Below, in pieces: positions 1,794 to 51,324 of a stretch of 51,324 nucleotides of DNA (position 1 is the stretch's first letter; every line of letters starts with the position of its first letter). The DNA is from a virus. The stretch lies in the IMG/VR virus record IMGVR_UViG_3300027863_000005, positions 1-51,324 of that record. One strand, 5' to 3'. Both the position numbers and the translations under genes were made by a program. A model generated the notes under the pieces. It made no database searches and was not told the DNA's origin. It worked only from the letters and a program-made list of their open reading frames with translations.

Positions 1794-1808
1794 TTGAAGG
1801 GGGCAAAG

Positions 1809-4510: not shown

Positions 4511-4614
4511 AATTGCAGTGACAGCCAGTGGAGAACTTGTGCTCCTATCACGGGCCTGATGCCTGAGAGCCCAGCCATAAATTGGCCGAATTTTCCGCAG
4601 CCTGGAGGAGAGAG

Positions 4615-5400: not shown

Positions 5401-5451
5401 TTCCAGAAAGCCGGAAAGCGACACGGACACCTGAAGACATGGAGGTGCAGA

Positions 5452-7876: not shown

Positions 7877-8670
7877 ATACCGAGACCAGTACGCCGCTTT
7901 CTACGCTGCTTTCGGCGGCCAGGGAAGTGATGAAACCCCGCTGGCCAAAGCCAGACGTCATCGCATATCACCTGCCAGGCGAACGTGATGTATCGCGTAC
8001 GCCCACAAGAATTCTCTGGCCTGGTTACAAGGAGCGCATGGACCTGCATGGCATACTGTACTTCAGAGCAGGCACCATTGTTGCTATTGAGAACGCAGAG
8101 CACCTTGAACCAATGCTGGACAGCAAATCGCTGCTGGCGGCCGCCAGGGAGTGTAGCAACCTGGCCGCAAAACTGGACGGCATGGCACAGACCATTCGTG
8201 ACCGCCAGAAAGCCGAACTGGCCTGCCTGGTTGAAGAGGCATCTGCGCTGGTGCTGGCTGGGCTTGCGAATGGGCTGGAGGGGGCCTTTTTCCCGCTTCT
8301 CCCGGTTGTCCATCGCATGCTGACCACAACATACGCACCCCCAGATGCAATCAGGAAACTTGCATCTGACATCATCATGCGCAGGCACCCGCTGAATGTC
8401 CGTGTGGAAAGCAGGCCTGAAAGCACCAGCCACTCCATAGACATCACCGTCTTTCAGGCCGGGGATGCAAGCCTGCACATGCTGGCAGAGGTGCACCGGG
8501 AGACAGCAAGGATTTCATGGCAGGTAGTTACGCAGAGCGGTGTCAGGTTAATCCGTGGCGATGCATCTGGGGCAATCGCTGTTGGCGATGTGTGCAGAAC
8601 ACCTCATGAGGCGCTTACACTAAAGATGCGCCTGGATACCATCATTCCGTACTGCAGAGGTGAAAGATGA
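7873..8670 (+). CDS. WP-motif paralogue 7 of 10
   Basis: KPRWPK...RILWPG; central ASALVLAGLA...LLPVV. ATGA overlap. Confidence 0.8.
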   Translation: MNTETSTPLSTLLSAAREVMKPRWPKPDVIAYHLPGERDVSRTPTRILWPGYKERMDLHGILYFRAGTIVAIENAEHLEPMLDSKSLLAAARECSNLAAKLDGMAQTIRDRQKAELACLVEEASALVLAGLANGLEGAFFPLLPVVHRMLTTTYAPPDAIRKLASDIIMRRHPLNVRVESRPESTSHSIDITVFQAGDASLHMLAEVHRETARISWQVVTQSGVRLIRGDASGAIAVGDVCRTPHEALTLKMRLDTIIPYCRGER

Positions 8671-9473
8671 AACAGATGATTGACGAATTCACAAAAGTTG
8701 CACACGAGGCTGCAAGGTGGGTGTGGCCCGCTGTGCATGTTCCACTGCCCCAAAGGAGAAGAATCGGAGGCACGCCCAAGCCGTCGTCGCTGTTCTGGCC
8801 TGGGCGGGAAGGACGTGACGGCCTGGAATATGTGACTGAACTGGGGGCTGCAAATTACACCTACTGGGTCGGCAATGCCATCGTCGCACAATATGCAACA
8901 CCGGATGCCATCACGACTGCAATAGACGAATGCAGGAAGGTTATCGCCGCAACCCAACATCAGTTGAGACTTGCAAGAGAGAGCGATGCGTACAGGCGCC
9001 TTGAACAGATGACGGACACTCTTGTTCTTTCTGGGGTAGTATCCCAAGACGCCCTCAGGGACCTGGGGGAGTTCAGGCTGCTTGTCGTCCCATGCTATTT
9101 GATGCACCGTATCCGCGCCAATGATGAACTGGATGGTCTACGAGTCAGAAGGCTCGTGGATGCAGCCATAAACGGCGAGATTGGGGACATAGAGGTCACC
9201 GTCTCGCGCGAAAACGGCGAACTCAGACGGGTGGTGGCCCGGGTCTACAAAGAAATCTGCGTGGTATTTCACTTCTGGGGCAGAACCTGGACATCGTACG
9301 CAGACTGCTGGTTTGGCATCCGGAACGATTTAGAAATGCGGGCATTCGGAGACTCGTACAGCGACCAGACCTGGCAACTTTCGCATGTATGCGAATCACC
9401 AGAAGAGGTTATTGAACTTATCAACGTTCTTGCAGAAGTGGGGCGGCTGCTTGAAATTGACACGGAGGATTAG
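8667..9473 (+). CDS. WP-motif paralogue 8 of 10
   Basis: RWVWPA...SLFWPG; central TDTLVLSGVV...LLVVPC; C-terminal EIDTED. ATGA overlap. Confidence 0.8.
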   Translation: MKQMIDEFTKVAHEAARWVWPAVHVPLPQRRRIGGTPKPSSLFWPGREGRDGLEYVTELGAANYTYWVGNAIVAQYATPDAITTAIDECRKVIAATQHQLRLARESDAYRRLEQMTDTLVLSGVVSQDALRDLGEFRLLVVPCYLMHRIRANDELDGLRVRRLVDAAINGEIGDIEVTVSRENGELRRVVARVYKEICVVFHFWGRTWTSYADCWFGIRNDLEMRAFGDSYSDQTWQLSHVCESPEEVIELINVLAEVGRLLEIDTED

Positions 9474-9474
9474 C

Positions 9475-10257
9475 ATGACGAAACTGGTGGATGCTGTGGT
9501 ACAGTCATTCATCAAGACGTGTATCCGTGCGTCTGAGCGCCCATGGCCTGAAGTTCGCGTGACGCCGGTTGCAACAAGAGCAATCGGCGAACAGATTTAC
9601 TGGCCATCACAGAACGGCTTACTACCGGACCGCCTCGCGTACGTTGACATCCGCAGTAAAAACGGCCATGAAACGCGCCACGTCACCGCAGTGGCAGACC
9701 GCATTGACCCCAACGCAGCCTTCTATGCGGAAGCAGAATGCAGAAAGTTCATTGATAATATCGTGGCCGAACTTACGCTGGTAAAAGCGACAGACCCGAA
9801 CTACGCTGCACTGATGAGTGAGGCCAATGCCATGGTGCTCGCCGGTGTTGTTCAGGTTGACCTGAAAGACAGACTGCCACTCGCTCCCTGCGCGTTTCTT
9901 GTTGAGAAAATCTCAACAGAATGGCCGGGATGGGCGGTGCGCAGATTGGTTGACCGCCTTCTGGATAGCACGGTCATGGCCATGGCTCTCTCTGTTGATG
10001 TTGATATGCTGCCAGGCGGAAAGGCAGAAGCCGTAACAGTAAGACTCAACGGCGACCTTGCCGTACTGTTTCGTATGTGGGAGCACAGAGGGTGGAGCGG
10101 GGTAGCGTCCACACTGTTCGTCGTGGGCGACGAGAACCCGCAGGGATACGATGAAGTGACCAGAGCAATTGCATACCACTGCCCCTCCCCGGCTGATGCC
10201 ATTTCCTTCAAATACGCCCTCTCAACCATGCTGGAAATCCTGGAGGAGGAAGAATGA
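9475..10257 (+). CDS. WP-motif paralogue 9 of 10
   Basis: ERPWPE...QIYWPS; central ANAMVLAGVV...LPLAPC; C-terminal LEILEEEE. ATG 9475 follows ACGGAGGAT. Confidence 0.8.
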   Translation: MTKLVDAVVQSFIKTCIRASERPWPEVRVTPVATRAIGEQIYWPSQNGLLPDRLAYVDIRSKNGHETRHVTAVADRIDPNAAFYAEAECRKFIDNIVAELTLVKATDPNYAALMSEANAMVLAGVVQVDLKDRLPLAPCAFLVEKISTEWPGWAVRRLVDRLLDSTVMAMALSVDVDMLPGGKAEAVTVRLNGDLAVLFRMWEHRGWSGVASTLFVVGDENPQGYDEVTRAIAYHCPSPADAISFKYALSTMLEILEEEE

Positions 10258-10988
10258 GGCTCGCGCTGACCGTAATCACCACAAGGTATTTCCCTCAGCC
10301 TGACAGAGAGCAATGGCAGAAACTCCGGTCAGAATTGGCCCCGAAACCCATCAGGTTTGGGAAAGGGACCTGGCCAGCCGACGGGGACTGGCCAGAAGCC
10401 CTGTTCTACGTTCAGTCTGGCGGCCGCAAGATACACATCAGCCAGTTTGACGATGACCCGAAATTCGCCACCGAAATCGCTGCCGCCCGCCGGTGGTGCA
10501 TAGAAACCCTCTCTCCGCGAGTTGAGCAGGCGTCGGCAGAGATTGCGCTGGCCCAGGAAAAGTACCGCAACGCCATCATCCGGGAAGCGGAAGCAATCGT
10601 CCTGGGCGGACTTGCAACGTCGCAGAAAAAACTCTATATCTGGCTGCCACTTGCAGTAAGGATGATGAGGCTGTACGAGGTCAACAGCATGGAAGCGTTG
10701 AATGCTCTCTCACCACAGTACTGGCCTGAAGGCGAGGTGGCCGCAACGGTCAACATTACTATCCACAAGCGCCTTTGCTTCATGGCAAGGGCACTGCGCG
10801 ACGCCGACAGCATAGTCAGGCACTTCTACATAAAAGAAGGGGATACATTATACGCCCCGGTGTCAGTCAACAGGATTGCATACTGGCTGCATGAGAACAT
10901 GCCAGCCACGCAAATCTGTGACTACATCGGCATCGCCAGCGCGATGCAGAGCCTTGACAGTATCCTCGCAAAATGCTGTACGGGGTAA
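10254..10988 (+). CDS. WP-motif paralogue 10 of 10 (divergent N-terminus)
   Basis: GKGTWPADGDWPE; central AEAIVLGGLA...IWLPLAV. ATGA overlap with paralogue 9. Confidence 0.7.
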   Translation: MRLALTVITTRYFPQPDREQWQKLRSELAPKPIRFGKGTWPADGDWPEALFYVQSGGRKIHISQFDDDPKFATEIAAARRWCIETLSPRVEQASAEIALAQEKYRNAIIREAEAIVLGGLATSQKKLYIWLPLAVRMMRLYEVNSMEALNALSPQYWPEGEVAATVNITIHKRLCFMARALRDADSIVRHFYIKEGDTLYAPVSVNRIAYWLHENMPATQICDYIGIASAMQSLDSILAKCCTG

Positions 10989-32474: not shown

Positions 32475-33800
32475 TTAGCAAATGCGCTCAACAGGCTCAA
32501 TTACATAAATGGCATCGGTACCGGTAACCACCCAGGCAGGACCGCTTGTCGCGACCACGCGCTCGCCGGGGTTGTCTGACAGGGTGTACCATGTCATGCC
32601 ACCGTCCTCAGTGACGTAGACTCCGTCGCCAACAGCGACACCGAACACGCCGTCGCCAGAGAACTGCATAGATGTGATTCCGGAGCCGACAACGCCAATC
32701 TCATCCACGTCAAGACCTGGGGCCCAGGCATAAGCAGTAGTGGCACTCATTGCCACCAGTCGCTTGGCCCAGTTCATGGACGCGGTCACGAAGTTCTGGG
32801 TACCAAGCGTGATGGAGGTGAACTGAGCGCCACTCCCATAAATGACCAGACCATTGTTTCCAACCCCGTAAACAATGCGGCCGTCGGTAGTCAGGTCATT
32901 CAGGCTTGCATAGGAGCCAACAAGTTCCCAGGCCAGGCCTCCGTTCACGCTTCTGTGAATCGTACCGTCCGACGCCCCTGCGTACAAGGTACCATCATTT
33001 GTCCGGACGATACCTCTCACGCTGGCGCCGTTGGCAGTAGAAAGGCTCGTCTTTGAGAAAGTGCTGCCGTTGGTAGAACTTGCAACCACTGCCGGGGCCG
33101 TGGTGCCCCCAGTCCCTCCGACCAGATACCTGCGGCCAATCCTGGTGACAAACGTTGGCTGGAAGTCCAGCGCTGTCGTGTTCCAGGACTGCCCACCATT
33201 CGTTGAGTACCGGAACGAGTGGTCAGTGCCATCGGAGACAATGGTGTACAACCTGGACAAGTAACCAACGGAGGGAGCGCAGGCAGAGCCACATGACTCC
33301 GGCTCGGCGCCAGCCATGACGACATCGGCAAGAGCAGCAATCTGGCGCTCAGCAGGAGGGCCCCAAAGAACATGCCCGGTGAATGCGAACGCGATGTTGG
33401 CCTCAACCACGTTGGTACTCGGCTCAAGCGAGGTAGGGGCCGTAATCGTCTTGTCGCCAACCTCGCCTCCCGTCAGAATGATTGCAGACGAGTAGTTTTC
33501 CGGGTTGGCGCGTTCGCCAGTCATTGAGAAGTTGACCCGGAGCGCGACAGGGCCGCAAGTCATCCGAAGCAACTGGTCACGGGTGGTTTCCAGACGCAAA
33601 TGAAGAGTGGTAGTCACATTGCCGGGAGCCCCGCGAATAACCCGCTGAGGCACCCAAGACCCGTAATCGGGGCCGGGCCCAAAAACTGTGGTGAAGTCCC
33701 CGGCTGGCAGGGTAATGTCGTCCGCACCAACGCAGACGAACTGCCAGGAGGACCCGGGGACTGCAAGAAAGACACTGGCTTCTGATTGAGTGAGCGGCAT
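32475..33800 (-). CDS. Putative major tail (tube) protein fused to a BNR/Asp-box repeat domain
   Basis: Sits immediately upstream of the chaperone and tape measure. RBS AGAGGTG. C-terminal two thirds carry STNGGQSW, SVNGGLAW, TEDGGMTW and SSTNGSTF. Confidence 0.5.
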   Translation of the reverse strand: MPLTQSEASVFLAVPGSSWQFVCVGADDITLPAGDFTTVFGPGPDYGSWVPQRVIRGAPGNVTTTLHLRLETTRDQLLRMTCGPVALRVNFSMTGERANPENYSSAIILTGGEVGDKTITAPTSLEPSTNVVEANIAFAFTGHVLWGPPAERQIAALADVVMAGAEPESCGSACAPSVGYLSRLYTIVSDGTDHSFRYSTNGGQSWNTTALDFQPTFVTRIGRRYLVGGTGGTTAPAVVASSTNGSTFSKTSLSTANGASVRGIVRTNDGTLYAGASDGTIHRSVNGGLAWELVGSYASLNDLTTDGRIVYGVGNNGLVIYGSGAQFTSITLGTQNFVTASMNWAKRLVAMSATTAYAWAPGLDVDEIGVVGSGITSMQFSGDGVFGVAVGDGVYVTEDGGMTWYTLSDNPGERVVATSGPAWVVTGTDAIYVIEPVERIC

Positions 33801-35014: not shown

Positions 35015-36283
35015 CTACGACCGCGAGGTCACACCACCGCTCAGCAGTGGCTCAGGGAAAATCCCCATCGTCGGCCAGGAGATGTTCGTGATTTTCGCCG
35101 CCAGGTACGGTGTCAGCAACACCACTCGTGGCACAATGACGCCCGTCAGGTTATAGCACAGCCCACCCGAAGGCGCCGTGTACCACAGGACACGACCAGC
35201 GTCAGTCACGACTGCCGCTGCATAACCCTGGGCTAAATCCGGCGAACCGGACATGTCCAGGTAGTTCATGAACGTCAGTTTCCGCCCCCCGGCGCTGATG
35301 GGGATGATGTAGATGTTCCCGGTGCTCGTGCCGGAATTGGAAGTGACCGGAATGCCATCGTCCCCGATGAACGGGTAAGCCCGTCCACCGATGGCGATGG
35401 TATCCTCTGAAAGCATTCGGTCACGCTCGCGCGCCAGCGCCGCAAGGTCAATGGTCGGCGTGTGTCCGGCGGGGAAGGTGTATCCAAACACCGCCGAATA
35501 CATCCCGGCCCAGGTCAGGGAAAGCAGATACTTCAACTCTGGCGGCACGGCAATGACCCATTGCACTTCCCCAAACCCATAGGCCGCAGCGCGGTGACGC
35601 AGAACCGTCATGACCTCCAGCAGCCTGCGGGCCAGCACCGACCCGGTGGAGTCCGTCGCGTTATAGTCGTCAGAGAAGTCTACCACCACCGAACCGAGGT
35701 TGGGGCACGGCGTCCCGGTCAGGGCATCCGTAATGGTGTCGGTGATGAGAGCATCAAGGCCCACAATCTCACGGAACCCCTCTGTGCCACCGGTCGGGTC
35801 CCCGCTCCAGACATCCTCATGAAGCCGGAGGTACAGGGCACGGGCAACAGCCAGCATCGCCAGTGCGATTCCGGACTCCGTAACCACCTGGTTGTTCACC
35901 TCACCCCGGCCAACCAATTCGCGGACTTCTGGAGAAAGCAGTTCGCCGATAATCTCAAAGTCCACTTCGCCCTGATTGACCCTCTGGACAAACTCCTCAG
36001 GGCTAATGGTTGGCGAGGTAAAGCAGTAGCGTCCATACGGCACAATCGCAACGCAAGAGGCCACTTCACCGACCGTCTGACAAGTAGCACACTTGCTTTG
36101 CGGCACCGTACCGGATGGCGATGAGTCAACCCGCAGAAGGTACGCAATTTGCGGGTTGGCAACATTGGAAGCCACCCAGTTTATCCTGGACAGTACAGAG
36201 GACGGCGTGACAACTGTGCTGAGCACTTCTTTGGCACTGACACCAGTAAACGCAGTGCCTGCACCATGAAAACGAAGCGGCAT
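35015..36283 (-). CDS. Major capsid protein
   Basis: 422 aa directly after the scaffold gene. ATG 36283 after TTGGAGGTTAAC. Call is by position and size; the fold was not verified. Confidence 0.7.
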   Translation of the reverse strand: MPLRFHGAGTAFTGVSAKEVLSTVVTPSSVLSRINWVASNVANPQIAYLLRVDSSPSGTVPQSKCATCQTVGEVASCVAIVPYGRYCFTSPTISPEEFVQRVNQGEVDFEIIGELLSPEVRELVGRGEVNNQVVTESGIALAMLAVARALYLRLHEDVWSGDPTGGTEGFREIVGLDALITDTITDALTGTPCPNLGSVVVDFSDDYNATDSTGSVLARRLLEVMTVLRHRAAAYGFGEVQWVIAVPPELKYLLSLTWAGMYSAVFGYTFPAGHTPTIDLAALARERDRMLSEDTIAIGGRAYPFIGDDGIPVTSNSGTSTGNIYIIPISAGGRKLTFMNYLDMSGSPDLAQGYAAAVVTDAGRVLWYTAPSGGLCYNLTGVIVPRVVLLTPYLAAKITNISWPTMGIFPEPLLSGGVTSRS

Positions 36284-36284
36284 G

Positions 36285-36947
36285 TTAACCTCCAATCATT
36301 TTCTGGGCCAGGATGCCAGCAGGAGTCACCTCGCGCCCAATCGGAGTGACTGACGGACGGGGTGAAATTTCCAGCGCTTTTTGAGCAGATTCCTGAGCCT
36401 GGCGGACTTGCTCCTTCAGCGCTGTAACGCTTTCAGCCAACTCCTTGACCTGCCCTTCAAGCCCTTCAAGCCGTGAAACCACCTCAGCAATGCTCTTCTC
36501 TTCGCCATTAGTGGGAGGGGCAGGATACGGGTAGCCATAAACAGAACCGCCCTCTTTAGCCATCTTTTCGGCAATTTGGTCTGCCCGCTCCTTGATGGCC
36601 TTCGGGGCAATCCGGGCAAGGATAGCCGCCAGCGCCCCCCACTCGCTTGGCTTGGAGATGCGAACGACAGTAGCAAGCGCCCGCAGATATTCCTGCACGC
36701 GCTCGCTCACTTCTTCCTCGGCAAGTGCCGCAATCTGACGTCCAAACGTGGATGCAGACTTCCGGCCCTCCTCCAGTTCGCCAGTAACTGACTTGCTGTC
36801 CAGGCCTGCCTCATCAAGGGCACGCTCAAGTCGGTCGGCTGCCGCCAGAAGTTCCTCCAATTCCTTTGCAAAGACGTCGGAGGAAACTTCCTCAAGGGTA
36901 ACATCATCTTCGTCTGTGGTCACTTCCTCAAGTTCGTCTTTCGTCAT
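36285..36947 (-). CDS. Scaffolding protein
   Basis: 220 aa, very acidic and helical (MTKDELEEVTTDEDDVTLEE...). Immediately upstream of the capsid gene. Confidence 0.65.
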   Translation of the reverse strand: MTKDELEEVTTDEDDVTLEEVSSDVFAKELEELLAAADRLERALDEAGLDSKSVTGELEEGRKSASTFGRQIAALAEEEVSERVQEYLRALATVVRISKPSEWGALAAILARIAPKAIKERADQIAEKMAKEGGSVYGYPYPAPPTNGEEKSIAEVVSRLEGLEGQVKELAESVTALKEQVRQAQESAQKALEISPRPSVTPIGREVTPAGILAQKMIGG

Positions 36948-39900
36948 TCTTCCTCCTTCTGGTCAATCGGAAAAGTTGTCCATGGATTTGCCGCAGCGCC
37001 CGCAGGAAGGATACTGACCTCCCGCAGTCTCAACTCAATAATCTGAGATGGGTCGTTCGGGTCACGAACCCCCCAAAATCCAACGGATGTCGCCCAACCA
37101 TACGGAGCGATGGTTGGATGGCCGGTTGGGTATCTGGTCAGGAAACTCTTAAAGAACCTTGCCTTCGGCGTATGCCGGAATTTCCCAATACCGAACACAA
37201 ATCGTTTGTATGGTATGAATGCAATAAGGTCAGCGATGTCTGTGCCGTCCTTGTGCGCAATCCGCACCGTAGCGTTCCTGGGCGGATTCTCCAGCAAACT
37301 CTGGACTGCCTGCTTTGTGACAAAGTCTCCCTGGAGGTCAAGGAAGCGGTTTGTCACCGGCAGTATTATCAAGTCCCCCACTATTTTATAACAAATCGCG
37401 CCAGAGCGCAAGCGAGGGAGCATTGCCAGGAACAATCTCCAGGGCAGATGCGGCAACTGGCGGACAGTCTTTCCCAGCCAGCCCTTAATGGACACCCTCA
37501 CGGGCGGTTTGTCAGACAGCGGGTCCCGGTAGAAAAACACCTCGTGCCCACGTTGGGCGAGCCTGGCCCGAATTTGCTCTATCGTTTCGTGGCGAGCAAT
37601 GGGTTCCCCGCCTGCCTTGACCGTCCAGACACCCGGCTGGATTCTCTGAAACGTAAGTAGCACCGACTTCCCCTTCCGGCCACGCAGCACTACTTCCACA
37701 AAGTGCCGGTTCCAGGTTCCGGCGTCATATGTGCCCCAGTCAACCGCATCAAATCTGGCGTACTTTTGAGTAGTAGAGCCTACCTCGCCTGGGCCGGAAA
37801 CAAATGGCTCTCCCTTACCGACCTCCAGCCAGTCCAGCGGCTGGGGCTGTTTTGGAGTGCAACGCATGATTTTGCCATCCTTCAGCGCCTCCCATGCGTT
37901 CTCCACTCCTTTTTCAGAGAAAATTGTGAAGCCAAAGAGGTAACTGCCATCATGGGCTGTCATGCGAAGGTCGTAGTGAACCGAGTGGCCAGCCGGTGGA
38001 TTGCTGACCTCTTCACGGGTGAGTCCCCTGATATGACGTTGGACAATGAATCTGCCATGTCCGTCTGCCGGGTAAAACTCGTGCCACTTCTCTTCCCATG
38101 TTCTCTCGGCACGTTCGCTTCTCGTGTCACCAGGCAATGTGTCGTCTGTCTCCTCGGCCAGTTCCTTGACGTTGGCCTCAAGTTCCCTGTAGTGCGGAAT
38201 CGGCTCGGCCTTGCTGCTCACTTCGTTCATCCATTTGCCTTTCTCTGGCACGAAGTTGGTGATAAGAACCTCCTGGTTAGGAGTAAGCCCATGGCCAGAG
38301 TTAGCCATGCGGTAAGCAACGACACGGAATACGTGCCATGTCTCCGGCAGCGTCACCCCGGAAGCCTTCAGGTCATTAGGCTTGCATGACAGGATGAACT
38401 TCCCGCGAATTGTTTTCAGCAGCCGGAGCAGTTCCGCAAACTGCTCAATGGTAAACGGGTATCTGTACTTGGAACGTGCATCTGAAGTGGGGTACGGCGG
38501 GTCCAGGTAAAACAGCACATCCTTGCGGTTACGGAACTTCCGAATCAGGTCAAACGCATCCGCATGAAGAATCCTCACACCACGAAACCTGCGTTTCAGT
38601 GCGAGGAAGGTGCCAACCGGAAGTCTGTGCCTATGCGATGGCGGCCAGTTAACCGACTCGTATCCCAGGTAAAACCTGCTACCAATCATCAGGAACAAGG
38701 CCGCCTCGCGGCCGGAGCGAGGCTTCGCTTCCTTTAAACGCCGCTGGGTTTCTCTGGTCAGAGGCGTTCTGCGGGCTTCCTCAACAACTGCCGCAATCTC
38801 ACTGTCCGAGGCCCTTTGAATAAAGCGGTAAGCAGCGATTTTTGTCCCATCAATATCCGCAATAACCTCTTCCCCAATCTTGGGCTTGATTGCAAAGAAA
38901 TTCAGCGTTCCCACGAATGGCTCACAGTATAGCGAATGGTCGGGGAACAACTCAAGGATTTTTCTGGCAAGGCGCGTTTTTGTACCGAGTCCCTGGAACG
39001 GCATCGGCCCACCAGCAAACCATTTGCGGGCCAATTCTGCATTCGCGTGCTCAAGCCTCATGCTCACGGCCTCGTGAAGGGTAAACGGCCCTCCCTCATT
39101 GACATTGGTTGCCATACCCGCTTGCTCTTCCGCAAGCGCTTTGCCAACCTCGCTAACTTTTGGCAACTCAATAATTCGGTCACGAACCGACTTAAGCCAT
39201 TTGCCTTTCTCTGGCTTGTAATTGGTTATGAGCAACTCGTCGGTCGCGTGACCGCCGCCGTGAGGAGTAATAGTGTACACCCGTACACGGTGGACGTGCC
39301 ATGACGCTGGAATCTTGAACCCAGCAAGGTCTCTCCGGTAGCACGACAGGATGAACCTGCCCTTTATCGTTTTCAGCAGTTCAAGCAGTTCCATGAATTT
39401 TTGCTTGTCAAACTGCTCACGGTAGTACACCGCATGGTCAGCCGTTGCATACGGCGGGTCAAGGTAAAACAGCACATTCGGGTTGTTCCGCAGGCTTCTG
39501 ATGACGTCAAGTGCGTCTTTGTGCAGAATCTTTACACCCGCCAGCCGGTGCTTGAGGGCAATGTATGTGCCAGGGTTAGGCTTGAACGAAACGAACGGCG
39601 GGTACGGAATCTCGCGCCCACGCATAAAAAAGTTGCCCAGCAGCGTCAGCCGGAACGCCTCTCTATCAGAGCGTGGCTTGCCATGCTGGACCTCTTCCTG
39701 AATCTCCCTGTCCGGACGGACGTTAGCAATTTCATCAATAACCTCGGCGATTTGAGCCTCACTTGCTCGCTGCAAGAACCGATAGCAGCGGTACTTGACT
39801 TCGTCAAGGTCAGAGATAATTTCCTGGACGCCCTTAACTTTTGGCTTCCTGGCAAAAAAGCCCAGCGAGCCCACAAATGGCTCGCAGTAGATTTCATGGT

Positions 39901-41824
39901 CAGTGAACAATTCCAGTATTTTCCCCGCCAGCCTTGCTTTTGTTCCAAGTCCCCGGAATGGCATTGGCCCACCGGCAAACATCTTGCGGGGCAGTTCCGC
40001 ATTCGCGTGCTCAAGCATTACCCTCATGGCTTCCTGAAGGGTGAGTGGTCTTCCCTCGTTAACATCGGTTACCACTGCGTTCTGAAACTTTAGCGTGTCA
40101 CCCGATGGCACCAGTTCCTGGCAAAGCACCGTGACCACATCGCCCGGCTTTGCCTGGATGCGGGTCACCATCGTTTTTCCGGTTGGGTGACCATCGGCCC
40201 ACTCGCAGTCATATGACCAGCCATTCTCTTTTCGCTCGGCGCTCACGACACGGGCCCGTACTTCCAGCATTCGCTTCACTTTGCTCCAAGACTGGCTGGG
40301 GCCTCCGGTGATGACTGAGTCCAGGTCTTTGGCCACGATTCCCTCAGAGCCGGGAATGAAGCCGAACCGTTCAAACGCGCTCTCCAGTTCCTGTTTGTTC
40401 CCGACAATTGTCATCGGGGTCAGAAACTCTTCCGGCACAATTCTCTCAAGAACTTTCCGTCTCTCGCGGTAAGGGGTGTCCTTGCTCACCCCGCCGCCCG
40501 ATAGAATGTCAAAAAAGCGCGGGTGGGCTGTCCATTCCACCCTCCGCGTGGATAAGACGGCGGGCATCAAGTGACGCGGAACAATGCGACCGTTGGCGAC
40601 CATCAGCAGTTCTCCATCCAACTCAACCGGGCCGCCCGGCAGGCGCAGTTGCTTCACAACATCCACAAGGTATGAAGACACATCTTTGCCACTTTCCGTT
40701 GTGGCCTTGACTCCGTCATCGCCAATCGCAATACGGAACCGCCAGCCATTCCATTTCGGCTCAACAGCAAATGGGGCATGGGAATGCCCCCACCCCTCCC
40801 ACATCTGAGCCGCCGAGAAATTCTCAAAGTAGAATGGCACTGCAGGTTTCATCGGCCACAGGGCCTTCTCGGCGTTTTCTAACGGGACGACCATACCGTC
40901 ATGCGCCAGTTCAGCCCAGGCGGGAAGTTCTGGTTCTTCTGGAACCGACCTGCCAACCTGCGTGAGGTAAACATGGAGCGCACCGGCGTCGCGGAGTTCT
41001 GTCAGGTGTTCTGCAACAGCCCAGTGGTCAAAAACCGGGTGGTCCCAACCGGCGGCGTCCACAACCGCAATGGCACCGTCAAAAAACTTCAGACTCTCTT
41101 CGGGAATCTCTGCGATGTCGTGAGCAACTGCAACTGCAATGCTATCCGCTTCCATGCGGTAGCCAACAGTGGTCACGTCACCATGTATGACACGGAATGG
41201 AGTAACGGTAACGTCTTTCACCCGGAAAGGGGTGCCAGGCGTCACCAGAACGACATCATGTTCGCCAATTTGCTCCGGCGCGTATACGGTGGTGTGCAAC
41301 TCCGACAACCCGGAGCATGCGTCACGATGGCGGTGGCTGACCAAAACAGCATCCGGCGACTGGTCAAGCCGTTCGGCAATCCCAGAGGGCGCATCCACCA
41401 GAAGGTTCACTCCGGAAATATTGACCAACGTGGCAGTATTCCACCGTGTTTCCCCATCATGGACAGGTTCGCTGGGACCAGTACCGACAAAATGGATGAA
41501 GTTTGCTGCCTGGTTTGACTTCACCTCCACTACCGCATCAGGCTTAAACCGCAGCACAAGGTCCGCCAGCGGGATGTAGTCCGAATGAGGGCCTGTTGGT
41601 TCCGGGATGATGTGAATGGGCAGGTCATGGCGGTCAATTTCCAGACGCTCTGCGATGTAATTCCTTACCTGGAGCAGCACAGAGTCAGCGGACACCGTCA
41701 GTTTGTCCCCAATGAACTCCGCGCGAACGACCACATCAACATCGCCGGGCGTGTTTCCTCGCACGGCCCCACCAGCGATGGAGAGAAAATCACTGACGAT
41801 GACCTTATCCTTGCCTTCTGTCAT
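36944..41824 (-). CDS. 1626-aa multidomain head-module protein: NTase motif + MBL-like + ATP-dependent ligase + 2x Dam-like N6-adenine MTase + LigD-type 3'-phosphoesterase + unassigned C-terminus
   Basis: - NTase: IAGGAVRGNTPGDVDVVV (G[GS]..RG.....D.D)
- MBL-like: VLVSHRHRDA
- Ligase motifs: EPKWNGWR (I), ELDGELL (III), EGIVAKD (IV), WSKVKR (V)
- Dam-like, present twice: GLGTK.RLA.KILELF...YCEPFVG...VLFYLDPPY
- LigD phosphoesterase-like: RFIVQRHIRG...HSVHYDLRM
- ATGA overlaps at both ends. Confidence 0.8.
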   Translation of the reverse strand: MTEGKDKVIVSDFLSIAGGAVRGNTPGDVDVVVRAEFIGDKLTVSADSVLLQVRNYIAERLEIDRHDLPIHIIPEPTGPHSDYIPLADLVLRFKPDAVVEVKSNQAANFIHFVGTGPSEPVHDGETRWNTATLVNISGVNLLVDAPSGIAERLDQSPDAVLVSHRHRDACSGLSELHTTVYAPEQIGEHDVVLVTPGTPFRVKDVTVTPFRVIHGDVTTVGYRMEADSIAVAVAHDIAEIPEESLKFFDGAIAVVDAAGWDHPVFDHWAVAEHLTELRDAGALHVYLTQVGRSVPEEPELPAWAELAHDGMVVPLENAEKALWPMKPAVPFYFENFSAAQMWEGWGHSHAPFAVEPKWNGWRFRIAIGDDGVKATTESGKDVSSYLVDVVKQLRLPGGPVELDGELLMVANGRIVPRHLMPAVLSTRRVEWTAHPRFFDILSGGGVSKDTPYRERRKVLERIVPEEFLTPMTIVGNKQELESAFERFGFIPGSEGIVAKDLDSVITGGPSQSWSKVKRMLEVRARVVSAERKENGWSYDCEWADGHPTGKTMVTRIQAKPGDVVTVLCQELVPSGDTLKFQNAVVTDVNEGRPLTLQEAMRVMLEHANAELPRKMFAGGPMPFRGLGTKARLAGKILELFTDHEIYCEPFVGSLGFFARKPKVKGVQEIISDLDEVKYRCYRFLQRASEAQIAEVIDEIANVRPDREIQEEVQHGKPRSDREAFRLTLLGNFFMRGREIPYPPFVSFKPNPGTYIALKHRLAGVKILHKDALDVIRSLRNNPNVLFYLDPPYATADHAVYYREQFDKQKFMELLELLKTIKGRFILSCYRRDLAGFKIPASWHVHRVRVYTITPHGGGHATDELLITNYKPEKGKWLKSVRDRIIELPKVSEVGKALAEEQAGMATNVNEGGPFTLHEAVSMRLEHANAELARKWFAGGPMPFQGLGTKTRLARKILELFPDHSLYCEPFVGTLNFFAIKPKIGEEVIADIDGTKIAAYRFIQRASDSEIAAVVEEARRTPLTRETQRRLKEAKPRSGREAALFLMIGSRFYLGYESVNWPPSHRHRLPVGTFLALKRRFRGVRILHADAFDLIRKFRNRKDVLFYLDPPYPTSDARSKYRYPFTIEQFAELLRLLKTIRGKFILSCKPNDLKASGVTLPETWHVFRVVAYRMANSGHGLTPNQEVLITNFVPEKGKWMNEVSSKAEPIPHYRELEANVKELAEETDDTLPGDTRSERAERTWEEKWHEFYPADGHGRFIVQRHIRGLTREEVSNPPAGHSVHYDLRMTAHDGSYLFGFTIFSEKGVENAWEALKDGKIMRCTPKQPQPLDWLEVGKGEPFVSGPGEVGSTTQKYARFDAVDWGTYDAGTWNRHFVEVVLRGRKGKSVLLTFQRIQPGVWTVKAGGEPIARHETIEQIRARLAQRGHEVFFYRDPLSDKPPVRVSIKGWLGKTVRQLPHLPWRLFLAMLPRLRSGAICYKIVGDLIILPVTNRFLDLQGDFVTKQAVQSLLENPPRNATVRIAHKDGTDIADLIAFIPYKRFVFGIGKFRHTPKARFFKSFLTRYPTGHPTIAPYGWATSVGFWGVRDPNDPSQIIELRLREVSILPAGAAANPWTTFPIDQKEEE
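38231..39103 (-). repeat. Intragenic duplicated Dam-like methyltransferase module, copy 2 (aa ~908-1198)
   Basis: VNEGGPFTLHEAVSMRLEHANAELARKWFAGGPMPFQGLGTK...FYLDPPYPTSD...FILSC...LITNFVPEKGKWM. Offset from copy 1 is exactly 320 aa. Confidence 0.85.
39191..40063 (-). repeat. Intragenic duplicated Dam-like methyltransferase module, copy 1 (aa ~588-878)
   Basis: VNEGRPLTLQEAMRVMLEHANAELPRKMFAGGPMPFRGLGTK...FYLDPPYATAD...FILSC...LITNYKPEKGKWL. Confidence 0.85.
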
Positions 41825-42366
41825 TTGAATTCCACCTCTACCACCACATTGGGCTGAGCAAGGGCTTTGAGAAGAGAGCCACGAATGGTTCTCATGGCCG
41901 CGTACGTTGCAAGGGTGTACGCGCTTTGGGTCAGGCTCCTTGCAGAAATACCGGGGTGGGCAACGGCTTTAGCCTTGATGACCGGCCCACTTCGCCTGGC
42001 CGGGCCAGGCGAGAAATAGTGAGGGCGCGTGCCTTGCAGGGCGCGCCGGTACCCCGGCCTGAACATCAGGAATCGGCTCCGTCTGGCAGCAATGACATGC
42101 GGTCTTGTCCCGCCGTCCATGAACCTGTAGATGGCCTTCTGCTCTGACGTGCCGGAAATAGCAATTGTGATGCAAACATCAACCGCGCCGCCCGATTCGG
42201 TCGCCGTTACCGCAAATGAGAACTCCGGAGCATTGCGCCAGTGCGTTGTCCATGCTTTCAGGTTCTCCGTCATTTCCTGGCCTATGCGGGTGCCAACGGT
42301 CTCGGCCAGCGTGGATGAGACGGCTTTTGCTACACCTCTTCTGATAACATCCTTTACCCTGCTCAT
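41821..42366 (-). CDS. Virion morphogenesis protein (possibly HK97 gp10-like)
   Basis: 181 aa between the portal and the giant protein, coupled by ATGA overlaps on both sides. KAVAHPGISARS is weakly reminiscent of the gp10 family. Confidence 0.4.
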   Translation of the reverse strand: MSRVKDVIRRGVAKAVSSTLAETVGTRIGQEMTENLKAWTTHWRNAPEFSFAVTATESGGAVDVCITIAISGTSEQKAIYRFMDGGTRPHVIAARRSRFLMFRPGYRRALQGTRPHYFSPGPARRSGPVIKAKAVAHPGISARSLTQSAYTLATYAAMRTIRGSLLKALAQPNVVVEVEFK

Positions 42367-43694
42367 TCTTCCGGCGTGATGTCCTTTCCTTCCATTACCT
42401 GAAGGTACTCCATCCGTAAATCACCCACATCGGCAGCAATCTGCCGGGCAATGTTCACCGTCAACTCGCCAGACGAAATCCGCCGTGCACGTTCTTGAGC
42501 CCGCATCAACGCTGCCTCTGCCTGCAGTCTGGCCTCGGTAAGGTCAGTCGGAACGAATTCAATTTGGGCCGGGAGGACCCGGTTCAGGTTGTGCTCAAAC
42601 TGACGCAGAATGATACCGTAGAGCCTCATGGCCGCGAGACGGGCCATGACCTCTGCTTCAGTGGCAGCGCCGAGGCGGGAACCTGGAAGTGGCGCAATAG
42701 AGCCGTAATCTACGCCCAACCCATTAGCAAGGACGGTAACGTACCACTCCATTACGTCCTTGAGGGAAAATCCTTCGGGCAAATCTTTCAGACGCACCAC
42801 TTCGGCAGTAGGGGTAGCGCTGGGGTCCAGCGGGTTCAGGAATACTGGAGGCACATAGACATGGCCGCCTGCGCTGACGGCCTTTTCTGTGGCCTGTTTC
42901 ATCGCGTCCTCCACTGCCCTGGCCGGTGCATTCGTCATAACGATTGTGTCGGCCATTGTGCCCTGAACCCGTTCCTGATGCCACGACAGGAGCGACGCCA
43001 TGAAGGACACGGCCTGCGCCAGCCTTGATGCTGCGCAGAATCCCCAACTGGTGCCAGGCTGGGGGTTGTCTACAATCTGGAAGCACTCCCGGTTGGAAAG
43101 GGTGATGGCAAGGCCGTCCTCTCGCAAGTACTGGAGGGGGTAGTCAGAGTCTTCGGTGGGGACACATCGGGTGGGGTCAAGAGAAAGAAAGACAGGCGGA
43201 GAGTCCGGGTCGTAGACGACGTCCGCCGGGTCAACGACAGTGCCGCTGGACTTTATCACCCACACACGGCCTTCGGGAGTATGGATAGCCGTTACCTCGT
43301 GGCGTGTCTTTCTTTCAATAGTACGACGAGCAATCTCTACCCAACCCCCGCTGTCAGTGGTCAGTGCCCCGAACGTAACTGCATGGATGAGAGGCCTCAG
43401 TCCACGTCCGAACTCCGCTGCCGCCAGGATTTCTCTCGTTCGCCCGACATTCTCACTGCTCCCAACAATGCTGTAGCGGGCGTTGGAAATCCGTGTTAGC
43501 GCGGAGTACAAAGCACCACAGAAAAGCGGCTCGCTGGTTGCCAGCCTCACCAGGGCCTTATTGCGCTCCGGGCCTCGCTGTTTAGGTATCGCCCCAACCA
43601 ACGAGAACACCGTAGCCATAAAAAACTCGGCCAGAGCATTGGATGAGTACAGTTCGTTCTTCCTCGGCCGCCTGGCCTTCGCCGCAATGCCCAT
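42363..43694 (-). CDS. Portal protein
   Basis: About 443 aa, first gene after terL. ATG 43694 after TGGGGAGTTGGTA (track start 43700 is TTG). Size and position are typical. Confidence 0.7.
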   Translation of the reverse strand: MGIAAKARRPRKNELYSSNALAEFFMATVFSLVGAIPKQRGPERNKALVRLATSEPLFCGALYSALTRISNARYSIVGSSENVGRTREILAAAEFGRGLRPLIHAVTFGALTTDSGGWVEIARRTIERKTRHEVTAIHTPEGRVWVIKSSGTVVDPADVVYDPDSPPVFLSLDPTRCVPTEDSDYPLQYLREDGLAITLSNRECFQIVDNPQPGTSWGFCAASRLAQAVSFMASLLSWHQERVQGTMADTIVMTNAPARAVEDAMKQATEKAVSAGGHVYVPPVFLNPLDPSATPTAEVVRLKDLPEGFSLKDVMEWYVTVLANGLGVDYGSIAPLPGSRLGAATEAEVMARLAAMRLYGIILRQFEHNLNRVLPAQIEFVPTDLTEARLQAEAALMRAQERARRISSGELTVNIARQIAADVGDLRMEYLQVMEGKDITPEE

Positions 43695-43754
43695 TACCAA
43701 CTCCCCATAACAGTTAGATTTTTGACAGTTGTGACCTATTACATATTTAGGTAG

Positions 43755-43890: not shown

Positions 43891-45324
43891 CTACAGCATG
43901 TACTGGCTGGCGCGGTAGGCAGCCATCGCCATTGCGACAATGACATCGTTATGCCCTCCCTGGCTGATGACGGTGAACCGATTTGCCTTGGGGTCCCAGC
44001 CTGTGTTCTGGTATTGTGGTTCTATTATGTGACGCAGGCTCTCCGGTATCAGAATGGCCCTCAGACGGAAAAGTGAATACAGGAACGAGTCGGCCAGCGC
44101 GCGGGACTGCTGCGCAAACGGGCGGACGTACGCCTTGTAGTCTCTTGCAAGGTTCTGGGCCATGTAGTGCAGTTGGTAGGGGTCATACGAGATTTCAATG
44201 ACCGGGTAGCGGTCTGACATGTCTCGTAGAAGGTTTTCCGCCGCCGAGAAATCCACAGCGCCCGCGCGTGGGTCCATTACATGGGCAAAGCGAACCACGT
44301 ACTTTCCCTCACCGACCGGGGAAACCCCGACAATGGCAAAGGTTGCCCTCGCGAACCCCGCGTCTACCCCAATCACCACTTCCTTTTCCCTGGGGCCAAT
44401 CAGTCGCTCTGCTTCATCGTCCGGGATGAAACATGCATTCATCCAGGCCACTGGAAGGGCCATCGCCGACGGGGAAACCCAGGTATTCAGGTGAACCCTT
44501 GCGAACTCATGCTCCGGCAGATGGCGTCGTTGCGACTCGTAGTACTCCGGCTTTTGCCATCCAAACCGGGTTAGGGCCTCCTCGCCCCAGTCGTAGTAGT
44601 AAAGCAGTTTCCCCGGCGGTGAAACCATGACCCTTCCGGCAAGTTCCGGTGACCGTGTTTCCACCACCAGCCCTGATGACCGGGCTTCATTGTAGAGCGA
44701 CTCCAGTACAGAACCCTGGCCAAGATAGCCTGCGTACGATTCCACCCATCGGATAGCGTGAGGTACAGTCGGGGGTGGAGTCAGTTCAACCCAGAGGGAC
44801 TTTTTATTGGGGGTGGTGTACGCCCATACCTCCGTGAAGACGGTCAGGGCAGGGTTGGCGCCGGCTGCGCCGGGAGCATTCACGGGGAGCGGGTAAATCC
44901 TGGAGTTGTTCGGGAAAACGATTTCCGACTGGGTGATTCTGGCCTGGACAATCGGGTTCAGTTCCAGCGACCTGGCGACTGCCTGGAAAACCCGGTCAGT
45001 GGCCTGCCGGCCATCATTAGCCAGCAGAACAATCTCCGAACCTGGGAACAGGTACGCGTACCAGAGAGTGACCGCAGCGGCAACCAGCGTCTTTCCTGTC
45101 TTTTTTGGAGAAGACCAGACAATGGTCTGGAAATTGAAAACGGGGCCCGTCCTTGAGAGCGCAATTCTCAGGAGTTCACGCTGAAACTCCTTGAAGCGGA
45201 TGGGGCCGGGCGGAAGGACTTCTCCGGTTTCCGGCGAAAGAGGTGACGGGACCCAGAAGCAGTACTCCATCCACGAGACAGGGTCCGTGATAGCAAGCGC
45301 AGTCAGGTCAGTCTTCTGCTTCAT
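43891..45324 (-). CDS. terL: Terminase large subunit
   Basis: 477 aa. Walker-A-like SSPKKTGKT; LLANDGRQA; nuclease-half VIGVDAGFARATFAIVGV. Upstream of the portal. Confidence 0.85.
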   Translation of the reverse strand: MKQKTDLTALAITDPVSWMEYCFWVPSPLSPETGEVLPPGPIRFKEFQRELLRIALSRTGPVFNFQTIVWSSPKKTGKTLVAAAVTLWYAYLFPGSEIVLLANDGRQATDRVFQAVARSLELNPIVQARITQSEIVFPNNSRIYPLPVNAPGAAGANPALTVFTEVWAYTTPNKKSLWVELTPPPTVPHAIRWVESYAGYLGQGSVLESLYNEARSSGLVVETRSPELAGRVMVSPPGKLLYYYDWGEEALTRFGWQKPEYYESQRRHLPEHEFARVHLNTWVSPSAMALPVAWMNACFIPDDEAERLIGPREKEVVIGVDAGFARATFAIVGVSPVGEGKYVVRFAHVMDPRAGAVDFSAAENLLRDMSDRYPVIEISYDPYQLHYMAQNLARDYKAYVRPFAQQSRALADSFLYSLFRLRAILIPESLRHIIEPQYQNTGWDPKANRFTVISQGGHNDVIVAMAMAAYRASQYML

Positions 45325-51132: not shown

Positions 51133-51324
51133 ATGAAGAGAAAGATGATGGATTGGAGACAGGTCGTCCAGGTTGCGGACGGCCTGCCGACCCAGGGGGC
51201 CGTAGAGGCCTTCTGGGACGAACTGGTGGTGCTATCGGACCCCCGCAGGGACTATGTCCCTGTGCGGGCTGTCCGGATGGCGCTGGAGGCCGCGCGGGGA
51301 GTGAAGGAGACAGTGGCCAAGGCC
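51133..51324 (+). CDS. Small membrane protein with Flp-pilin-like motif, 5' part (ORF continues across the contig junction into 128..265)
   Basis: ATG at 51133 preceded by ACAGGAGGTGCAGG. The frame is continuous with ORF 29..265 once the 127-bp overlap is collapsed. Joined product is about 109 aa: MKRKMMDWRQ...AEGGQAVLEYIAVIGLIALVFFLAASWLL... Confidence 0.6.
   Translation, partial: MKRKMMDWRQVVQVADGLPTQGAVEAFWDELVVLSDPRRDYVPVRAVRMALEAARGVKETVAKA
51198..51324. repeat. Terminal direct repeat, copy B (identical to 1..127)
   Basis: Same 127-nt string as 1..127. Confidence 0.97.

Follow-up and report, generated by a model that had tools for sequence, protein, structure and literature searches.

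Bacterial LigD unites an archaeo-eukaryotic primase (AEP) polymerase, a 3'-phosphoesterase and an ATP-dependent ligase in one chain, and works with Ku in non-homologous end joining (NHEJ). The polyvalent proteins of phages and conjugative elements were defined in 2017 by Iyer, Burroughs, Anand, de Souza and Aravind (PMC5512222). Here we describe a predicted protein of 1626 amino acids (aa) that shows likenesses to both, encoded on the minus strand of the IMG/VR virus record IMGVR_UViG_3300027863_000005; the whole stretch analysed, positions 1 to 51,324 of that record, is referred to as the window. We propose, with a probability of roughly 0.55, that a prohead protease gene has grown in this phage into a gene for a polyvalent polyprotein, whose enzymatic cargo would be encapsidated, carried into the next host and act on the DNA there.

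In the polyvalent class, an assemblin-like peptidase is always C-terminal when present and probably processes the protein during assembly, and the proteins carrying it are predicted to be packaged and injected; the distribution of this subtype was called 'rather limited' (PMC5512222). The methyltransferase hub of the class is the DarB-type methyltransferase-helicase dyad, DarB being an adenine methyltransferase that travels in the virion and protects DNA in cis, and the same paper makes no mention of DNA ligase, LigD phosphoesterase, uracil-DNA glycosylase (UDG) or XkdF. The 1626-aa protein resembles the class in its disparate enzyme domains in one chain, its setting among portal and terminase head genes, its putative C-terminal assemblin-like peptidase, its adenine methyltransferase cargo and its predicted packaging; at least two disparate predicted activities are found in one polypeptide encoded among packaging and head genes. 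It differs in that its relatives form a large family defined by a conserved nucleotidyltransferase-ligase-phosphoesterase core, and in that its methyltransferases are of the D12/Dam type, not DarB-type EcoKI/TaqI-like enzymes with a superfamily 2 (SF2) helicase.

An earlier interpretation of the same DNA, made from its letters alone (hereafter the sequence-only reading), held that a phage protein with this domain combination was not known to have been described. Because the polyvalent class was already on record, that claim of novelty was over-stated, whereas the LigD-like core appears undescribed: in the literature on XkdF/PF14550, ligase-protease fusions, LigD phosphoesterases in virions and Acb1 with prohead proteins, the present family was not found. 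What appears to be new is only this repair core as a conserved prohead-protease cargo, joined here by two Dam-family methyltransferases and a metallo-beta-lactamase (MBL) domain.

The open reading frame and its domains

The open reading frame (ORF) runs on the minus strand from an ATG at 41824 to a stop at 36944-36946, and the single uninterrupted frame claimed by the sequence-only reading was confirmed: the 1626 codons hold no internal stop, and all the domains lie in this one frame. The ATGA coupling claimed at both ends is real as well. Upstream, in TTCAAATGACAGAAGGC, the TGA of a 181-aa ORF shares bases with the ATG of the 1626-aa ORF, and downstream, in GAAGAATGACGAAAGAC, the TGA of the 1626-aa ORF shares bases with the ATG of a 220-aa ORF. 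Every motif that had been quoted is present, namely GGAVRGNTPGDVDVVV at aa 18-33, HRHRD at 164, KWNGWR at 357, DGELL at 403, EGIVAK at 494, WSKVK at 513, EPFVG...DPPY twice (DPPY at 789 and 1108) and FIVQRH...HYDLRM at 1259-1288. The ratio of nonsynonymous to synonymous substitution rates (dN/dS) is 0.06-0.15 in each domain, which indicates that every domain is under purifying selection.

Three domain types exceed Pfam's own cut-offs (MethyltransfD12, DNA_ligase_A_M and Lactamase_B_2). The nucleotidyltransferase-like, phosphoesterase-like and C-terminal segments gave no direct sequence match in Pfam, PHROG, NCBIfam or the PDB, and were studied through family profiles and structure prediction. 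The predicted features are as follows.

36944-41824, minus strand: whole 1626-aa ORF including the stop, putative polyvalent prohead-protease fusion protein (full-length homologues; dN/dS 0.06-0.15 in all domains)
41510-41824, minus strand: aa 1-105, minimal nucleotidyltransferase-like domain of the Pol-beta superfamily, G18-G19 ... D28xD30 ... D88 (family conservation, weak profile matches)
40865-41497, minus strand: aa 110-320, MBL-fold hydrolase, PhnP/RNase Z-like (Pfam PF12706; PDB 3py5, 3md7 and PhnP; NCBIfam MBL families)
39980-40852, minus strand: aa 325-615, ATP-dependent DNA ligase adenylation domain and the following, probably OB-fold, region (Pfam PF01068; PDB 3gde, 1vs0)
39050-39964, minus strand: aa 621-925, Dam-family (D12) N6-adenine methyltransferase, copy A, EPFVGSLG ... 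DPPY (Pfam PF02086, PHROG methyltransferases)
38123-39007, minus strand: aa 940-1234, Dam-family (D12) N6-adenine methyltransferase, copy B, EPFVGTLN ... DPPY (Pfam PF02086, PHROG methyltransferases)
37490-38092, minus strand: aa 1245-1445, divergent LigD 3'-phosphoesterase homologue with a conserved C-terminal extension (hhalign, PDB profile matches, conservation)
37388-37489, minus strand: aa 1446-1479, low-confidence helical linker (pLDDT below 50 at residues 215-242 of the AlphaFold2 model described below)
36995-37387, minus strand: aa 1480-1610, prohead (capsid-maturation) protease domain of HK97/assemblin fold (Foldseek; invariant H1524, H1569, S1580 and E1602)

A chain of this length could be suspected of being adjacent genes merged by an assembly or sequencing error. 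A 99.9% identical contig (L003, IMG sample 3300009503) has the same layout, both methyltransferases included, and its ORF is split into three frames by two 1-nucleotide (nt) deletions in G runs inside the gene.

L003 6747: 1-nt deletion, corresponding to about 38041-38044 of the window
L003 7443: 1-nt deletion, corresponding to about 37379-37381 of the window

These deletions are probably homopolymer sequencing errors, with phase variation as a conceivable alternative. Seven homologues of 35-91% identity from other samples are single ORFs of 1097-2038 aa with the domain order unchanged, and the whole frame is retained in five more distant homologues. Since homologues retain the frame, dN/dS is low throughout and the layout of L003 matches, the comparison indicates that the stop-free 1626-aa ORF is not an assembly artefact, and we regard an artefactual fusion as hardly credible.

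A prohead protease fold at the C-terminus

The C-terminus, which the sequence-only reading could not assign, can now be given a prohead-protease fold. An AlphaFold2 model of aa 1235-1626 reached a predicted local distance difference test (pLDDT) score of 76 overall and of about 65-87 in the protease region. Foldseek searches of BFVD returned named matches that are mostly phage prohead proteases (COG3740, HK97 proheadase; probability 1.0, E down to 8e-5), and those of the PDB many herpesvirus assemblins in succession (probability up to 0.95, E 0.05-0.4). The candidate catalytic residues H1524 and S1580, as well as H1569 and E1602, are invariant in seven homologues. Because the modelled C-terminus has an HK97/assemblin-type prohead protease fold, the gene would be a capsid-maturation protease gene with an enzymatic N-terminal extension of about 1,400 aa, and it occupies the canonical place of the protease, before the scaffold and capsid genes. 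HK97 gp4, T4 gp21 and herpesvirus assemblin share with it the fold, a His followed by a Ser about 56 residues on, and the position before scaffold and capsid; they differ in that the present protease would form the last 10% of 1626 aa and not a stand-alone 25-kDa protein, and in that no similarity to Pfam S78 was detected here.

A link to the scaffold was found in a relative. The homologue P0007 has a C-terminal extension to which the 220-aa protein encoded directly downstream is similar (E 2e-8, GYPYPAP motif); the P0007 locus has the same synteny with no separate scaffold gene and a capsid-size gene directly after; in the P0007 phage, the predicted enzymes, protease and scaffold are thus one chain. 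The protease fold, this scaffold fusion, the XkdF ends of other relatives and their head-module loci together give strong support to a predicted capsid association of the 1626-aa protein, and strengthen what the sequence-only reading had claimed on this point.

The C-terminal part of the HK97 protease is reportedly able to target the protease and fused, even foreign, passengers into the capsid, as described by Duda, Oh and Hendrix in 2013. Head-carried enzymes acting at entry are known in P1 DarB and in T4 Alt and IPI, to which the predicted cargo would be alike. DarB needs an SF2 helicase and separate Dar packaging proteins, whereas no helicase domain is found in the 1626-aa protein; the P1 Dar proteins, cited as a precedent by the sequence-only reading, hold as an example of an injected adenine methyltransferase, but only as a loose one. 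In T4, a short N-terminal peptide targets the protein to the capsid, while here the protease domain itself would be the handle, and none of these phage proteins carries a ligase or a phosphoesterase.

The same facts could describe a late-gene polyprotein that is not injected. Fusion would then serve late, stoichiometric expression near the packaging site, the protease would release the enzymes in the producer cell, progeny DNA would be sealed and methylated there, and little or none of the protein would reach the virion. The classical substrate of phage methyltransferases and ligases is progeny DNA in the producing cell, and the gene, translationally coupled to its neighbours, belongs to the late head operon. 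According to a 2026 preprint, CBASS (cyclic-oligonucleotide-based anti-phage signalling system) is activated by phage proteases, which could explain the fusions of the anti-CBASS-type Acb1 with proteases seen in relatives without any packaging, and injection has to presume that the enzymes stay in the capsid. What this explanation leaves unaccounted for is that the protease is a regular partner at the extreme C-terminus, beside or fused to the scaffold, and that the same cargo is found on independent protease families (HK97-like, XkdF and Mu I); free late genes would serve production equally well. We consider it rather unlikely.

Nucleotidyltransferase-like, MBL and ligase domains

The N-terminal domain carries the hG[GS]x9-13DxD signature and a third carboxylate (G18, G19, D28, D30 and D88). 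Among 105 family copies, the G, the [SG], the DxD and the D are near-invariant (G/DxD in 104 of 105), and the position of G19 is a Ser in 97. Pfam matches among relatives were weak but fell mostly on Pol-beta nucleotidyltransferase families, namely NTP_transf_2 in 5 of 25 (best E 1.2e-3), Polbeta in 2 of 25 and DNA_pol_B_palm in 2 of 25. Foldseek with a model of the domain gave a best E of 1.9, which is not significant, and MNT antitoxins appeared only at a probability of about 0.1. Of the nucleotidyltransferase claimed by the sequence-only reading, the conserved motif stands, while profile support is weak and the fold search did not add to it; a Pol-beta-type nucleotidyltransferase is probable at aa 1-105, though not established.

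The MBL-like segment and the ATP-dependent ligase, both claimed earlier, pass their Pfam cut-offs. PF12706 (Lactamase_B_2) scores 35.4 bits against a cut-off of 27 for the MBL domain, in which H214, D256 and H267 are conserved. PF01068 (DNA_ligase_A_M) scores 51.9 bits against 26.2 for the ligase domain, and the motifs I (KWNGWR), III (DGE), IIIa (FFD), IV (EGIVAK) and V (WSKVK) are all present. Matches in the PDB are archaeal DNA ligases, 3gde, and 1vs0, the ligase domain of Mycobacterium tuberculosis LigD. Among NCBIfam models, that of the NHEJ ligase domain ranks first, though its cut-off is not reached (TIGR02779 55.8 against 227.75; TIGR02776 42.8 against 373.2), so that the predicted ligase is LigD-like, yet not a member of the LigD (NHEJ) equivalog. 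Motif residues are retained throughout 96 family copies (K357 in 92, E494 in 95, G495 in all 96 and K515 in 94), and motif I reads KxNGxR, its third-position residue being Asn in 59 copies and Asp in 34.

That form of motif I, KxNGxR and not KxDGxR, is among the points that could be brought forward for repair of RNA, in particular of tRNA cut by anticodon nucleases. The nucleotidyltransferase would then restore a nucleotide, like RlaP, the phosphoesterase or the MBL domain would open 2',3'-cyclic phosphates, and the ligase would reseal the strand. The LigD phosphoesterase also acts as a 2',3'-cyclic phosphodiesterase, the MBL domain is PhnP/RNase Z-like, 2H phosphoesterases occur as alternative cargo, and phage Pol-beta nucleotidyltransferases accompanying RNA ligases are known (RlaP; PMC7824862). 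The ligase nevertheless belongs to the DNA-ligase family, with LigD and archaeal DNA ligases as its top matches, no polynucleotide kinase is present, and the co-cargo (Dam-family methyltransferases, UDG) is DNA-directed. RNA repair is therefore improbable in our view.

The LigD-type phosphoesterase homologue

Foldseek of the two-domain model against the PDB gave no significant match for the phosphoesterase part, only noisy beta-barrel and triphosphate tunnel metalloenzyme (TTM) matches; as the fold search was uninformative, profile-profile comparison was relied on. In hhalign, the phosphoesterase-like family aligned with 25 genuine stand-alone PF13298 proteins at a probability of 96.1% (E 3.6e-9), the alignment covering 121 of the 130 template columns and showing an insert of about 18 aa in the phosphoesterase-like domain. 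Three of the four top PDB matches of a broader family profile are LigD-type phosphoesterases (3p43, 5dmp and 3p4h), and PF13298 itself matches 3 of 47 relatives. The metal-site residues Q1262xH1264 ... H1283xD1285xR1287 are retained; the H/H/D/R/K/W set of the phosphoesterase is kept in 150-154 of 154 family copies, and K1325, P1329 and W1332, which lie where the EDH...Y segment of genuine members would be expected, are invariant. By these alignments, aa 1245-1445 are a true but divergent LigD 3'-phosphoesterase homologue. The homology claimed by the sequence-only reading is thus upheld, while the EDH...Y part of the domain is unrecognisable.

In the window, the phosphoesterase-like domain (37490-38122) is 75% identical to that of P0002 (dS 1.38), the flanking domains being 89-92% identical (dS 0.3-0.5), and it is closer to that of P0004 (81%). 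This mosaic identity suggests recombination of modules within the gene.

The likeness to LigD lies in a homologous phosphoesterase (QxH, HxDxR) and an NHEJ-like ligase, in one chain with a third domain of nucleotidyl-transfer type. The differences are that the AEP primase-polymerase is absent, a Pol-beta-like domain of about 100 aa standing in its place, that the EDH...Y segment is unrecognisable and the insert present, that Ku was not found in the genome, that scores are far below the equivalog cut-offs and that the module is fused to a putative capsid protease. Judged by its domain content, the 1626-aa protein is not a LigD.

A packaged LigD-like module might join the ends of a linear genome after entry, in place of host ligase or NHEJ. 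The mycobacteriophages Corndog and Omega, which rely on NHEJ-type end joining at entry, are the precedent (Pitcher et al.), and the present phage would be alike in this respect; those phages encode Ku and borrow the host LigD, whereas the present one would bring ligase and phosphoesterase, with no Ku found. Genome circularisation would suit the LigD type of both enzymes, and the recurrence of the core in the retrieved relatives points to a basic step of the life cycle rather than a niche counter-defence. Against it stand the lack of a Ku homologue in the window, the undefined nature of the genome ends in a contig that closes on itself through a 127-nt overlap, and the UDG, methyltransferase and Acb1 cargo of relatives, which it leaves unexplained. 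We consider it unlikely.

Methyltransferases and avoided palindromes

MethyltransfD12 (PF02086) scores 90 bits against a cut-off of 22 in four stretches, motifs I (FxGxG) and IV (DPPY) are found in both copies, and the TIGR00571 score is below its cut-off (86.5 against 114.85). Profile searches, on whose outcome the sequence-only reading had staked its ligase, phosphoesterase and methyltransferase assignments, support all three. Copies A and B are 52% identical to each other, as expected of paralogues and not of a recent duplication. Since close relatives have copy A only (P0002, 91%; P0003, 84%) or copy B only (P0004, 75%), the methyltransferases behave as cassettes.

Four 4-mer palindromes are nearly absent from the window: GATC occurs once against 148 expected, AGCT twice against 143, CTAG once against 50 and TCGA three times against 114. 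For the other twelve 4-mer palindromes, the ratio of observed to expected counts is 0.75-1.1, and some 6-mers are low as well (CCGCGG 0 of 10.6 expected, GCCGGC 10 of 34, CCCGGG 8 of 30). The residual sites are as follows.

GATC: 21473
AGCT: 23586, 28175
CTAG: 34985
TCGA: 3292, 30424, 50913

The close relatives L005 (GATC 0 of 54 expected, AGCT 1 of 50, CTAG 0 of 13, TCGA 0 of 41) and L085 (0 of 34, 8 of 37, 1 of 13 and 0 of 32, in the same order) share this avoidance, which is not seen in L001, L002 and XkdF-type loci, the more distant family members. The near-absence of four palindromes indicates that type II restriction exerts an intense pressure on this lineage, and fits an anti-restriction role. 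With a single GATC in the genome, enzymes of 'Dam-like' type cannot be protecting their own genome at GATC; the two Dam-type modules of the sequence-only reading are therefore supported as domains, and GATC protection is excluded.

The family of relatives

A profile spanning the phosphoesterase-like and protease domains retrieved the family, which counts 756 clusters at 50% identity; of these, 177 lie below 1e-30. The phosphoesterase-like domain occurs in at least 97 viral contigs of IMG/VR. Among the best 154 relatives, nucleotidyltransferase-ligase-phosphoesterase is the dominant architecture, and the MBL domain and D12 methyltransferases are occasional. Domains were counted in 47 spread members.

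31 of 47: XkdF-type protease (Peptidase_S78_2) at the end
30 of 47: ligase
14 of 47: UDG
11 of 47: class-I S-adenosylmethionine (SAM) methyltransferases
7 of 47: MBL domain
3 of 47: Acb1

Acb1 of anti-CBASS type and other 2H phosphoesterases gave 3 + 2 + 2 + 1 family matches, in members that possibly overlap, and one mRNA-capping-enzyme-like domain was also seen among the alternative cargo (P0014-P0154). In the 80 loci kept, the recurring order is TerL, Mu-type portal, family gene, scaffold-like gene, cement and capsid gene, the portal being fused to MuF in the representative locus scanned; a GYGYPAP scaffold-like protein follows the family gene in 47 of the 80 viral loci. One member, P0008, follows a Mu/P23-45-type portal and carries both Mu-I and XkdF protease domains. 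Taken together, these predicted architectures indicate that the core cargo is recurrently fused to three protease families (HK97-like, XkdF and Mu I) and to the scaffold.

P0008 itself (L002 7242-13358, 2038 aa) consists of an N-terminal Mu-I-type protease, two rounds of nucleotidyltransferase-like, MBL and ligase domains, a phosphoesterase-like domain and a C-terminal XkdF domain; in the second of its two ligase copies, motif I reads EPDFPGFR and no longer contains the lysine. PHROG phrog_1530 ('DNA methyltransferase') matches 31 of 47 family members, equal to the XkdF count, and may be a mislabelled protease family. We also suspect that the phosphoesterase-like domain is part of phrog_13242 ('unknown function'), to which 22 of the 47 members show matches (E as low as 1.7e-50).

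Matches in Lactococcus P335 phages were considered as methyltransferase-protease fusions and rejected, the XkdF match lying at the N-terminus of a 349-aa protein for which 'DNA methyltransferase' is a mere annotation. The protein in question (L004 3953-5002, Lactococcus phage 28201 gp33) and those of related P335 phages are named 'DNA methyltransferase' in GenBank and 'head maturation protease' in RefSeq.

The presence of UDG in 14 of the 47 relatives raises the possibility of repair of damage acquired in the virion. DNA in hot environments deaminates and depurinates, and a co-packaged set resembling short-patch base excision repair (UDG in relatives, 3'-end cleaning, one-nucleotide addition and ligation) could act at or just after entry. 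The sample of the near-identical contig, 3300009503, is among hot-spring datasets, and that of the closest relative, 3300005298, is in the same list (PMC9599585). The protein of the window, on the other hand, has neither a UDG nor an AP endonuclease, restriction of the wider family to thermal sites is not established, and the nucleotidyltransferase-like domain is far too small for a templated polymerase. Damage repair of this kind is, in our judgement, distinctly unlikely.

Gene neighbourhood and genome

The last 127 nt of the window (51198-51324) are identical to the first 127 nt (1-127). This end repeat is taken as an assembler overlap, so that the window represents a closed, complete phage genome of 51,197 unique bases. 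No relative of it was found among 50,697 GenBank phage records. The gene order around the fusion gene is TerS, TerL, 445-aa ORF, 181-aa ORF, 1626-aa ORF, scaffold-like 220-aa ORF and 426-aa ORF, the small terminase lying upstream on the same strand (PHROG E 2.8e-10).

43891-45324, minus strand: terminase large subunit (PHROG phrog_9, E 1.8e-25)
42363-43700, minus strand: 445-aa candidate portal, by its position after TerL only
41821-42366, minus strand: 181-aa ORF, ATGA-coupled upstream, conserved in L001 (171 aa), L003 and L085 (181 aa)
36285-36947, minus strand: 220-aa acidic, helical scaffold-like protein, ATGA-coupled to the 1626-aa ORF, matching the P0007 C-terminal extension
35015-36295, minus strand: 426-aa candidate major capsid protein, by position only, with synteny conserved in L001, L003 and L085

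The labels 'portal' and 'capsid' given to the neighbours by the sequence-only reading agree with the position after TerL and the conserved synteny, but the 445-aa and 426-aa ORFs had no profile match in PHROG, Pfam and NCBIfam scans. The 445-aa ORF did not resemble the Mu-type portal encoded in L002, and for this reason its label remains positional.

Three further observations were made elsewhere in the window. A 441-aa protein (32478-33800, minus strand) has weak BNR/Asp-box, Sortilin-Vps10 and DUF6242-like matches, occupies an equivalent position in L001, L003 and L085, and could be a tail or receptor-binding component of beta-propeller type. At 690-2954 (plus strand), a MoxR-like AAA+ ATPase (367 aa) adjoins a 387-aa ORF, and a DUF2201 metallopeptidase-like/VWA protein is encoded somewhere in the window; if the 387-aa neighbour were that protein, there would be an AAA-VWA pair in a phage. 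Finally, 2970-10985 (plus strand) holds a tight succession of ten ORFs, each 244-290 aa long, of which only two pairs are weakly similar (26-28% identity).

A proposed model for loading and delivery of the cargo

From the domains and their setting we infer that the protein is packaged, injected and active on the DNA that enters, in the following manner. The protease domain and the scaffold encoded downstream would take the whole protein into the assembling procapsid, a step suggested by the encapsidation of HK97-type proteases and by the one relative with a fused scaffold. The N-terminal part of about 1,400 aa would be the enzymatic cargo. Its core resembles a LigD in which the polymerase has been exchanged, and joins a small Pol-beta-type nucleotidyltransferase-like domain to the LigD-like ATP-dependent DNA ligase and the LigD-type 3'-phosphoesterase homologue. 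To this core, the lineage of the window would add the MBL-fold phosphodiesterase and the two paralogous Dam-family adenine methyltransferases. Maturation cleavage would free folded enzymes too large to leave the shell, which would be retained with the DNA and ejected with it into the next host; inspection of the domain boundaries by eye revealed no convincing shared cleavage motif. There, the phosphoesterase and the MBL domain would clean 3' ends, the nucleotidyltransferase would possibly add a nucleotide, the ligase would seal nicks, breaks or genome ends, and the methyltransferases would modify adenines outside GATC. With conserved catalytic residues and low dN/dS, the predicted enzymes look active.

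Several points weigh against this proposal. The protease assignment comes from a medium-confidence model, aa 1400-1626 having no Pfam, PHROG or PDB sequence match to Peptidase_S78, S77 or U35. Among the predicted enzymes, the MBL metal motif is incomplete, the last His of HxHxDH being replaced by Ala in HRHRDA (an Ala kept in 9 of 10 aligned clade members); the window ligase has Asn in motif I where Asp is expected; and the (V)EDHxLxY segment, whose D, H and Y are invariant in genuine PF13298 members, has no aligned counterpart in hhalign. No Pfam match to a Ku-like partner or an AEP primase-polymerase was found in the window. The role of the methyltransferases would have to be something other than GATC self-protection, and the predicted substrates could be DNA or RNA, and nicks or double-strand ends. 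Because the family was retrieved through the phosphoesterase domain, the constancy of that domain is partly by construction. No cultured relative was found: among GenBank phages there were only generic methyltransferase and ligase matches, and the phosphoesterase/protease part had no relative (tblastn for the phosphoesterase-like domain). A 180-kDa cargo in many copies would compete with a 51-kb genome for capsid volume, and encapsidation, cleavage and ejection are all steps that we infer.

The proposal can be extended, more tentatively, to the whole family. A large uncultured group of tailed phages may pack a LigD-like end-repair machine by means of a protease handle and co-inject it, so that the entering DNA is resealed, circularised and modified before host nucleases destroy it, with methyltransferase, UDG, MBL and Acb1 as swappable add-ons. 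Such counter-defence would act by repair, not by evasion or inhibition; we see it as possible, and would sooner expect it to need revision than to hold in full. In the literature, no characterised example of counter-defence through injected break repair was found.

Implications

Even without injection, an annotation would be corrected, as the 'missing' maturation protease of such phages would be the tail of a protein that pipelines label as DNA methylase or ligase. If the homology of aa 1245-1445 is true, the LigD phosphoesterase superfamily gains a large branch in viruses, in which one half of the active site differs and whose members are probably thermostable, given the apparent hot-spring origin. 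If the proposed loading is true, the prohead protease would be a natural cargo-loading handle, useful to engineer capsids for enzyme delivery. If the cargo is indeed packaged and injected, these phages would bring their own break-repair enzymes, mending damage from restriction, from nicking or acquired in the virion. The cassette system, with Dam-type copy A, copy B or both, with or without MBL, and with UDG or Acb1-like domains, could then, if true, be read as a record of the defences that each lineage faces.

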